From the NCBI GenBank assembly GCA_948471115.1, contig CAOKRJ010000002.1:4805-68804 (forward strand): DNA of 64,000 nucleotides, in the 5' to 3' direction. The translations under genes and the position numbers were made by a program. The notes beneath the pieces are model-generated. The model was not told the origin of the DNA, did no database searches, and saw only the letters and a list, made by a program, of their open reading frames with translations. The stretch is from an uncultured Clostridium sp. (GTDB lineage: Bacteria > Bacillota > Clostridia > TANB77 > CAG-508). Shown here one piece after another: positions 7,658-10,600 of this stretch; position 1 is the first letter of the stretch; each line of letters starts with the position of its first letter.

Positions 7658-10600
7658 ATGGGGAAAATAGTAGAAACAAGAAAGAGATATAAAGAAACAA
7701 TAAATGAAATCACAAAGAGCGAAGAAAATTGGATCAAGTTTTTAGACAGCAGTTCTTGGAATTTTAAGTATGATTTTATAGATCAAGTATTAATTTATAC
7801 ACAAAAGCCAGAGGCAAAAGCATGTGCATCAATGGATATATGGAATAAAAAGTTACACAGGTGGGTAAATAAAAATGCAGATGTAATATTCGTACTTTCA
7901 AAAGATGATAATAACGCATATCCATTTGATATTGTATTTGATGTAACTGATACACACAACTATAAAGGAACAGAATACAAATTATGGAGTGTTAAACAAG
8001 AATATGAAGAAAAAGTTATTGAAACATTAGAGGCAACATTTGGAGGAGAAAGTTGTAACACATTAGCAGAACAAATTATTTCAAGTTCATATAGTATGGT
8101 AATGGATAATATACAAGATTATCTTCCAACAATTCACGAGAATAAAAATGGAACAGGACTTGAAAATTTAACAGATAATGAAATTCAAGATAGTATGGTA
8201 CTAACAGTTCATGCAAGTGTTGCTTATATGATGATGACAAGATGTGGAATAAATGCAATGGAACATATATCTGAGCAAGAATTTATGCTTGTAAAAAAAT
8301 TTAATAGTGATAAAATAATTACAACATTAGGAACAACAATAGGCGATATAGCTGAAATGGGACTAAAAGAAATTGCAAAAACAATTACAAATCTGCAAAA
8401 ATTAGAAAGAAATATAAATCGTACATTTGCAGAAAACAAAAAACAGGAGTATTCTAATGGTATAGAAAAAGTCGAAGGAGGAAATGAGTATGGAGAAAAT
8501 AGAATACACGAAGATAAAAGATTACAATATACCGAATTTAGCAATGGAGAAAGAGAAGATACCGAATGGCAAATACGCCAGAATGAGACTGAAATTTCTA
8601 AGAGAAAACAAAAAAGCATATTATTCAATACTATTGATGGACAAAAGCTTGAACGAAGAATTAATGAGAGTACAAGAACAAGCAACCGAAATGATAAACA
8701 AAATAATAGAGAAATTAGTGAAACAGGAAGGGATAACAGAAGAAATGAAAGCACGAGATCCGATGGAATGGACAGGGGTAATGAACAATTGCAAGATGAT
8801 AGCAGAGGGGCAAGTAATCAGGGAACTAATATACAGCTAGATTTATTACTAACTGAAAATGAACAAAAACAAAAAATAACAGAGGTGCAAGACACTTCTG
8901 TTTTTTCTTTGCCACAAAATAAAGAAGATATATCTTTAGAAGAAAAATTATATAAATTTTATAATAATTATGATATTTATGATGTTGACGAAGTTTCAAT
9001 GGAACAAGTAAAGGCAGACTTAAAAGATAATGAATCAATAAATGAAACATTAAATTATTTAAAAGAAATATACGAGGCAGAGGACGAGCCTTTAAAGGAA
9101 GAATTTGAAACTGAGATTTTAGAAATTATTATTGAACTAGAGAAATTATTACCAGAAGAAACAAAAGATAAAAAAGAGGAATATATTTATTCAATAGGAG
9201 ATAATGTTTTTTTGGGTACAACTGAATATCAAATTACAGCTATTAATGGAGATACAGTATCTATTGCAGATGTGAGTTTTCCAGTATTAGTAGAACAATT
9301 AGATTTTCAAGAATTTAATAAAAGAGTAAGAGAAAATCCTATAAATGATAATCTAAAGGAAAGACAAAGAGCAGAAGATACAGTAGAAGATATAGTAGAA
9401 GAAAACGATGATGAAGATATCAAAGAAACTGAAATCAGAGAAAAGGAAATAAAGGAATTAAAAAATTTTATCGGTAGAAAAGTAAAAAATGGAGAAATAA
9501 CATATACAATAGTTGGTGTAGAGCCAATAGATGATATAAATGAAGGGGAAGACTTATTTAATCTTCAAGATGATAATACTAAAGAATATACAATAGAACC
9601 AGTAGGGTTTGTCAAATATCTTATTAAAATAGAGCAAGGTATAACTAATGTAGATACAAATATAGAAGAAATTAAAGAAGATAAACAAGAAAATGAACTA
9701 AAAGCAAAAGTAAAAACAAGACGAAAAAATAAAATTGAATATTTTGATTTACACCCAGAAATTCCACTAGAAGATAGGCATAATTTTAAAATACAAAATG
9801 AGGATTTAGGTGCAGGTGGAAAAAAAGAAAAATATAGAAATAATGTACAAGCAATTAGAGTTCTAAAACAATGTGAAAATGAAAATAGATATGCGACTCC
9901 AGAAGAACAGGAAATATTATCAAAGTATGTAGGTTGGGGAGGAATACCAGAGGTATTTGACACTAGAAATGACAACTGGGATGCAGAATATAATGAATTA
10001 AAGTCCTTACTAACTGAAAAGGAATATGAGGAGGCAAGAAGGTCAACATTAACAGCTTTTTATACACCACCGATAGTTATAAAATCAATATATAAAGCAC
10101 TAGAAAATATGGGACTAAAGAGAGGAAATATATTAGAGCCAAGTTGTCGGTGTACGGTAATTTCTTTGGAATGATACCAAATACATTAAGTGAATGCAAA
10201 ATGTATGGAGTTGAGATAGATACTATCTCTGGAGGAATTGCTAGGCAGTTATATCAAAAAAATACAATAGCAATAAAAGGGTTTGAAGATGTAGAACTTC
10301 CAGACTCTTTTTTTGATGTAGCAATTCGGCAATGTTCCTTTTCGGAGATTTTAAGGTTTATGATAAAAGATATGATAAAAATAAATTTTTAATTCACGAT
10401 TATTTCTTCGGAAAGAGTTTAGACAAAGTTAGACAAGGAGGAGTAATTGCATTTATCACAAGCAAAGGTACACTAGATAAAGAAGATGACAGTGTTAGAC
10501 GTTATTTATCACAAAGAGCAGAATTGATTGGAGCAATAAGACTTCCCAATGATACATTTAAAAGAAATGCAGGAACAGAGGTTACATCCGATATTATATT

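Follow-up and report, generated by a model that had tools for sequence, protein, structure and literature searches.

Probable dual coding of a nested tnpV gene within a giant polyvalent-type gene of Bacillota mobile elements

When a short stretch of DNA inside a giant gene of a mobile element is open in two reading frames, does it encode two proteins, or is one frame merely read across a captured gene? The question is raised by a 64,000-nucleotide (nt) stretch of contig CAOKRJ010000002.1 from an uncultured Clostridium sp. (assembly GCA_948471115.1, positions 4,805 to 68,804; hereafter the window), in which an open reading frame (ORF) of the TnpV family lies in an alternative frame within the 5' part of a giant gene. 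The original prediction, made from the window by itself, offered dual coding beside an arrangement of three separate genes. We favor dual coding, with a probability of roughly 0.8, as homologues keep both frames open. By this account the nested tnpV is a genuine gene, TnpV would be made by internal initiation, and the giant ORF would be read through the same stretch as a stop-free linker.

The alternative-frame ORF occupies 8484..8840 on the + strand (118 amino acids [aa]) and is fully enclosed by the host ORF at 7646..10174 (+ strand, 842 aa), which forms the 5' part of the giant gene and through which intact homologues map in one frame by tblastn. The two registers differ by one base (host codons from 8483, tnpV codons from 8484), tnpV being the +1 frame. 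A Shine-Dalgarno (SD) motif, AAGGAGG, at 8475..8481 (+ strand; Glu-Gly-Gly in the host frame) is situated 8 nt upstream of ATG 8490 but only 2 nt upstream of ATG 8484. Because the latter is too near the motif, ATG 8490 is the likely start, and the product is most likely a 116-aa protein beginning MEKIEY, encoded together with its stop codon by 8490..8840 (+ strand). The complete gene, its strong SD motif, and the length of its product all agreed with what had been predicted, and the ORF was located at exactly the anticipated position. Neither the host frame nor the tnpV frame contains a stop across the tnpV span, compared to 24-25 stops in the third frame, and upstream the tnpV frame is shut by a TAG 18 nt before ATG 8484. 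The tnpV-frame product matched the Pfam TnpV family (PF14198) over the full length of the profile (positions 1-111 of 111; E 3.9e-33; 114.2 bits against a cut-off of 27) as well as PHROG 24764, a family of unknown function (E 1.8e-29). An NCBIfam search with the proteins of both frames and a Pfam search with the host-frame protein gave no match. The end-to-end likeness predicted with a second, stand-alone tnpV in the window (13021-13422) was borne out by 39% identity over 114 aa. The nested copy is not part of a Tn4451-like module; rather, it lies inside the giant gene with no adjacent recombinase.

Whether homologues keep both frames open was the check proposed at the outset. GTDB species genomes were searched with the N-terminal domain of the giant gene alone as the query, which left the sample unbiased towards tnpV, and the search gave 76 loci (35-69% identity), one of them truncated and 75 usable. 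In all 75, a TnpV-coding frame directly followed the N-terminal domain, its register being one base in front of the host register every time. Across tnpV, stops were absent from the host frame in 75/75 and from the tnpV frame in 73/75, with 8-29 stops in the third frame, and the host ORFs of these loci were often longer than 1,900 aa. Both frames were also open in all 10 plasmid records that we collected from Clostridia and Bacilli ( Subdoligranulum, Monoglobus, Cohnella, C. perfringens, C. botulinum, E. faecalis, L. monocytogenes, and B. cereus). Host ORFs run for 1,900 to 2,790 aa in a single frame through tnpV, as exemplified by the Monoglobus gene (6992..14656, 2554 aa), and the guanine-plus-cytosine (GC) content of the plasmid-collection records with the nested pair ranges from 24% to 55%. 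The plasmids of C. botulinum, C. perfringens, E. faecalis, Listeria, and B. cereus (loci L094, L095, L097, L099, L100, and L101) carry divergent TnpV-like ORFs of 111-120 aa that were recognized by the hidden Markov model (HMM) at E 1e-10 to 2e-22, within genes annotated as "SNF2-related" or "helicase-related". Altogether, some 90 related elements across Bacillota retain the nested pair. The tnpV frame is open even in lineages with only 22-36% TnpV identity. When the giant genes of C. botulinum, two Listeria records, and B. cereus were scanned, tnpV was the sole alternative-frame ORF of at least 80 aa, except for an insertion sequence (IS) element in one Listeria record. In Listeria NC_022051, the giant gene is cut by IS21 and the nested ORF survives. 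Proteins resembling the nested TnpV occur in two contexts, one with the synteny of the window (surface protein, 75-aa gene, giant gene) and the other consisting of recombinase-tnpV-NikA-relaxase modules.

Could the host frame have remained open by accident? The TnpV proteins of 58 related sequences were re-encoded with synonymous codons resampled according to local usage. The window protein then acquired a mean of 12.0 host-frame stops (minimum of 6), about 10 were expected across the relatives, and a stop-free host frame was obtained in 0 of 29,000 resamplings. Stand-alone tnpV genes, for comparison, have 3-14 stops in the equivalent of the host frame. A T at the third position of a tnpV codon creates a host stop when followed by AA, AG, or GA, and this arrangement was found in 0/2,522 such contexts in the AT-rich nested clade and in 0/191 in a high-GC nested group, versus 26% and 13% in stand-alone tnpV genes. 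T was depleted in harmless contexts as well (14% versus 41%), and the linker therefore avoids T-initial codons. The overlap is open in both frames beyond chance and in diverged homologues, and the openness of the host frame is selected, not accidental.

These results bear directly on the suggestion that three separate genes (ArdC-like, tnpV, and methylase-helicase) are present, with a fortuitous or artefactual host read-through and a linker that is never translated. The NCBI Prokaryotic Genome Annotation Pipeline (PGAP) portrays the Monoglobus and Cohnella records in roughly this manner, calling TnpV and truncating or dropping the giant gene, and gene callers applied to metagenome contigs call tnpV and leave its flanks uncalled. 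The host frame, however, is free of stops in all of the approximately 85 divergent loci, stop-creating T is avoided specifically and completely (0/2,713 contexts), the N-terminal ORF has no stop before tnpV, and, in the loci examined, neither the overlap nor the sequence immediately after it offers a start codon for the downstream part. Uninterrupted host ORFs, moreover, reach 2,554 to 2,791 aa. We consider three separate genes to be very improbable.

The distribution of variation along the locus also distinguishes the two frames. Nucleotide diversity at host codon positions 1/2/3 was 0.31/0.25/0.38 in the N-terminal domain and 0.41/0.33/0.23 in the overlap; the latter is the pattern of the tnpV frame, as the third position of tnpV codons coincides with host position 1. 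This flip occurs exactly at the boundary of the overlap, where tnpV position 3 becomes the most variable and tnpV position 2 the least. To estimate omega, substitutions were counted on the edges of a minimum spanning tree and compared to the mutational expectation, a simple counting scheme rather than a model built for overlapping genes, which yielded 0.37 for the N-terminal domain, 0.28 for the tnpV frame (0.21-0.32 whatever the host-frame effect), and 1.06 for the host frame among tnpV-synonymous changes only. The TnpV frame is under purifying selection at the amino acid level. The host frame lacks detectable amino acid constraint but is stop-free and depleted of T-initial codons, and selection at this locus is asymmetric. 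Purifying selection can be attributed to each frame, to tnpV by omega and to the host by its avoidance of stops. The selection check that had been proposed for the two frames thus showed constraint on the amino acids of TnpV, whereas the host frame was held only to being stop-free and hydrophilic, in keeping with its predicted nature as a linker.

The same data are at odds with a TnpV frame that is a fossil, i.e., a captured or ancestral tnpV that is now silent and recognizable only through nucleotide or protein constraint on the host linker. Two loci (L057 and L086) do carry a tnpV-frame stop, yet the substitution pattern follows the tnpV frame and not the host frame, the tnpV-frame omega stays at 0.21-0.32 regardless of the host-frame effect, the start codon and SD motif are conserved, and the frame is open in the lineages with 22-36% TnpV identity. 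A fossil is, in our estimation, slightly less probable still than three separate genes.

How might the nested frame be translated? An SD-like core (GGAG, GAGG, AGGA, or GGGG) was present 6-11 nt before the ATG, mostly at 7-8 nt, in 71 of the 72 unique sequences and was most often part of a longer AAGGAGG-like stretch, which reads as Gly-Gly or Glu-Arg-Ser in the host frame. Since nothing else keeps the host frame from varying at this point, conservation of the core points to a ribosome-binding site for internal initiation of TnpV. The core together with the ATG would provide the nested gene with a translation signal of its own. The predicted products differ in character. The host stretch comprises 83% disorder-promoting and 14% hydrophobic residues and is probably disordered, whereas the corresponding values for TnpV are 56% and 36%, equal to those of the N-terminal domain. 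An AlphaFold2 model of TnpV (predicted local distance difference test score of 86) displayed a beta-hairpin followed by helices, and a Foldseek comparison of this model to PDB and BFVD returned no match at E ≤0.001.

These observations are best explained by a scheme in which a 350-nt stretch, lying between the ArdC-N-like domain and the methyltransferase/SNF2-helicase part, serves two reading frames. Ribosomes engaged on the giant ORF would read a hydrophilic linker of about 120 aa, a flexible tether whose sequence is free to drift provided that no stop appears, and other ribosomes would initiate at the conserved internal SD motif and ATG of the same mRNA, one base out of register, to produce the 116-aa helical TnpV. 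Through such nesting, TnpV would be inherited and expressed together with the transfer-associated giant protein. Because the constant company of TnpV consists of relaxases, serine recombinases, and the giant gene, our low-confidence guess is that TnpV acts as an accessory factor when DNA is processed or established in the course of transfer.

Several points weigh against dual coding, in general or for this copy. Internal initiation is read from sequence, the omega values share the simplicity of their counting scheme, and the two loci mentioned above have a stop in the tnpV frame. In addition, the context needs correcting, as the giant gene of the window is not intact. When compared to intact homologues by tblastn, it aligned in a single frame over 7646-10147, then in shifted pieces to 12922, and, after a gap, over 21900-23555; the shifted pieces (10156-10341, 10341-10715, 10702-12378, and 12374-12922) are in frames 1, 3, 1, and 2, respectively. 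The gene is frame-broken at about 10150, 10341, 10710, and 12376 and is further split by an insertion, so the full-length host protein is probably not made from this copy, and dual coding may be historical here. Either the gene is decaying or the assembly contains indel errors. The 842-aa N-terminal ORF with its nested gene is intact. Finally, about 20 database protein clusters from metagenome data, with lengths of 393-395 aa, contain the N-terminal domain and TnpV in a single continuous frame and could hint at a fusion product.

The fused proteins invite an explanation by recoding, in which a programmed +1 ribosomal frameshift or transcriptional slippage near the junction would generate an ArdC-like-TnpV fusion of about 393 aa, the unshifted product would be the giant protein, and free TnpV would be absent or minor. 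The number of 393-395 aa proteins, one of which is called "TnpV protein" in an NCBI metagenome-assembled genome, agrees with this explanation, as does the location of the frame-switch points in runs of A or T. The giant frame is still open across tnpV in the in-frame loci, and in two of the three that were checked (L088 and L091) it has no start codon within the overlap. The switch points are scattered, however, being found up to about 100 nt upstream, in the A-run between the SD motif and the ATG, or inside tnpV, with one protein switching twice. No conserved slippery site or shared motif at a fixed position was seen among the in-frame variants, and the switches are lineage-specific. Each of nine higher-GC in-frame variants that we compared has a host-through relative that is 91-99% identical in the N-terminal domain, a finding that fits sporadic frameshift mutations or assembly errors. 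The in-frame form was encountered in 0/75 GTDB species representatives, the TAG 18 nt before ATG 8484 closes the tnpV frame in the window, and the conserved feature is an SD motif and ATG at initiation spacing. Recoding is accordingly judged unlikely, though less so than either three separate genes or a fossil frame. We also rejected, as the main reading, that the in-frame form is a second genuine architecture, given the scattered switches, the host-through relatives, the absence from species representatives, and the missing start codon in L088 and L091. In our reading, the in-frame proteins stem from assembly errors or sporadic frameshift mutations in a gene whose inactivation is common in nature; an intact snf2 gene is present in only 8/155 genomes of Streptococcus suis (PMC9815147). 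Among the variants themselves, loci L087-L091 and proteins P0033-P0137 exhibit recurrent +1 frameshifts in A/T homopolymer runs, and P0108 switches into the tnpV frame and then back.

Having arrived at dual coding as the preferred account, we considered how old the pairing is. Pairwise identities of the N-terminal domain and of the nested TnpV were closely correlated (Spearman rho of 0.91; 351 pairs among 27 loci), which argues that the pair was inherited as a unit since the origin of the gene family and was not repeatedly captured. The nested gene appears to be ancient, with TnpV co-diverging with its flanking domain. In a neighbor-joining tree the deepest branches were all nested, and eight stand-alone TnpVs were scattered within the Clostridia-type nested crown; the bootstrap values are weak (6-51%), and the tree therefore fits escape from the nested state or the reverse. 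It is conceivable, although we regard it as rather doubtful, that the TnpV family arose by overprinting within the polyvalent gene's linker, or has been confined to it ever since the family originated, that repeated escapes from there gave rise to the stand-alone tnpV of Tn4451-type transposons and of mobilizable elements carrying resistance, and that TnpV is a functional partner of the giant protein.

Same-strand nested genes are known from comS inside srfAB of Bacillus subtilis and Rz1 inside Rz of phage lambda. As in those pairs, a far larger gene encloses, out of frame and on its own strand, a small complete gene that has a ribosome-binding site to itself. The two products of those pairs are made from one mRNA region, whereas the tnpV pair is known here from sequence. 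The nested tnpV also differs in belonging to a conserved and older-looking family, in that the frame of the large gene encodes an unconstrained linker where those pairs have a catalytic or structural domain, and in being kept across a phylum-wide family of mobile elements rather than in one operon or phage group. Overprinted genes of small viruses such as phiX174 (reviewed in PMC8227390) likewise yield two proteins from one stretch, with one disorder-rich frame and asymmetric constraint, but the present case concerns a cellular mobile element with no obvious pressure on genome size. Our survey of the literature on TnpV, SNF2, polyvalent proteins, and overlapping genes, which was incomplete in coverage and is no proof of absence, found no description of the nested tnpV/giant-gene arrangement. 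Same-strand nesting is a known kind of arrangement, and this pair is an unusually well-supported case for which no description was found in that literature.

The closest known relatives of the nested product are the TnpVs of Tn4451/Tn4453-type elements, which represent the same family at full length. The window copy is 39-51% identical to stand-alone copies located by serine recombinases and NikA/relaxase genes. Those stand-alone genes are ordinary ones, with 3-14 stops in the frame that nested copies keep open, and the stand-alone TnpVs that we aligned possess an N-terminal extension of about 15-20 residues that nested copies lack. An Xis-like role for TnpV is a conjecture of the literature only (PMC3158075). 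In plasmids of S. gallolyticus, Campylobacter coli, and Salmonella (L102-L104), a stand-alone tnpV is found beside the resistance genes tet(O/W/32/O), aph, and aac(6')-aph(2''); stand-alone tnpV has spread to plasmids of Campylobacter and Enterobacteriaceae.

The host gene is of the kind that encodes the polyvalent proteins of conjugative elements described by Iyer et al. 2017 (PMC5512222), having ArdC-N-like, N6/Eco57I-type methyltransferase, and SNF2 helicase regions in about 2,500 aa. With several conflict-related domains in one polypeptide on a mobile element, it fits the definition of such proteins. The concept as described does not include a second gene hidden in an inter-domain linker, and the terms TnpV, overlapping, frameshift, and linker are not present in PMC5512222. 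The intact Monoglobus homologue (2,554 aa) contains N6_Mtase, Eco57I, SNF2/ResIII, and Helicase_C matches in one polypeptide. In the window, the N-terminal domain covers approximately 7646-8470 (+ strand) and was the region aligned at 35-69% identity to the 76 GTDB loci. Its earlier label of "ArdC-like" is supported transitively, by an ArdcN match found only in the Listeria homologue (E 6e-6; named ArdC-like by PGAP), and not by the window domain itself, which has no Pfam match. A search of the sequences of solved structures with a profile of the N-terminal domain gave nothing significant (best E of 0.18). The hydrophilic linker read across tnpV in the host frame spans 8483-8842 (+ strand) and is succeeded by a variable region that runs to the first frame break. 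Beyond that break, the methyltransferase and the first half of the SNF2/ResIII helicase occupy 10156..12922 (+ strand), spread over four frame segments that were recognized by tblastn and ResIII/SNF2 matches. The 3' end of the giant gene, with a Helicase_C match, is at 21867..23606 (+ strand), where the tblastn alignment over 21900-23555 shows 53-75% identity to the C-terminal parts of homologues.

Between the two halves of the helicase lies a mobilizable element of about 9 kb (approximately 12923-21899, + strand; ends approximate), delimited by Pfam matches and by the gap from 12922 to 21900 in the tblastn alignment of the giant gene. It carries the stand-alone tnpV (13021-13422), AAA_25, DUF6075, NikA, relaxase, and ParB genes, and two DUF6664 genes, with a large serine recombinase (19819-21846) at its right end. 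Serine-recombinase elements bearing tnpV are reported to insert specifically into the snf2 gene of integrative and conjugative elements (ICEs) of Streptococcus suis (PMC9815147), and the window shows exactly this insertion, a tnpV-bearing element in the snf2 region. Directly upstream of the giant gene is a 75-aa ORF (7409-7636) that has no family match and recurs in the same place in L001-L003. Farther upstream, two overlapping ORFs (3476-5344 and 5292-7253) are both made of SpaA (prealbumin-fold) repeats. The pair looks like a surface-adhesin gene that a frameshift has cut in two; at this place, homologous loci carry one gene, 898-1,349 aa in length.

Current annotation deals with the nested pair in one of two ways. 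For Monoglobus (L092, NZ_OY725736.1, 6992-14656), RefSeq calls the nested TnpV and places the start of the giant gene (2,554 aa) at codon 1033, and for Cohnella (L096, NZ_CP051681.1, 4001-5180), TnpV is called, the N-terminal domain is unannotated, and a probably spurious minus-strand ORF covers the domain. Calling the nested TnpV therefore leads to a misplaced start of the giant gene in the former and to loss of the N-terminal domain in the latter. For the Listeria, Enterococcus, Bacillus, and Clostridium plasmids with available gene tables, PGAP annotates the giant gene but not the nested ORF. The error is a systematic one that affects how plasmids and ICEs from medically relevant Bacillota are annotated: either the nested gene is missed or a 2,500-aa gene is truncated.

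Long same-strand overlaps in bacteria have rarely had strong comparative support, and here a complete nesting of 350 nt is kept from Listeria and Bacillus to gut Clostridia, with each frame bearing a clean signature of selection. The design offers a cheap way for two proteins to share DNA, as one frame bears the amino acid constraint and the other need only stay open and hydrophilic. If TnpV did originate in the linker, that origin would explain why tnpV-bearing elements home to the giant gene, and TnpV might then act, for example, as an adaptor or regulator of the giant anti-restriction/methylase/helicase protein during transfer or establishment. TnpV is an uncharacterized protein that travels with antibiotic-resistance elements, and it is now physically linked to the gene that those elements preferentially enter, which provides a concrete starting point for working out its role.

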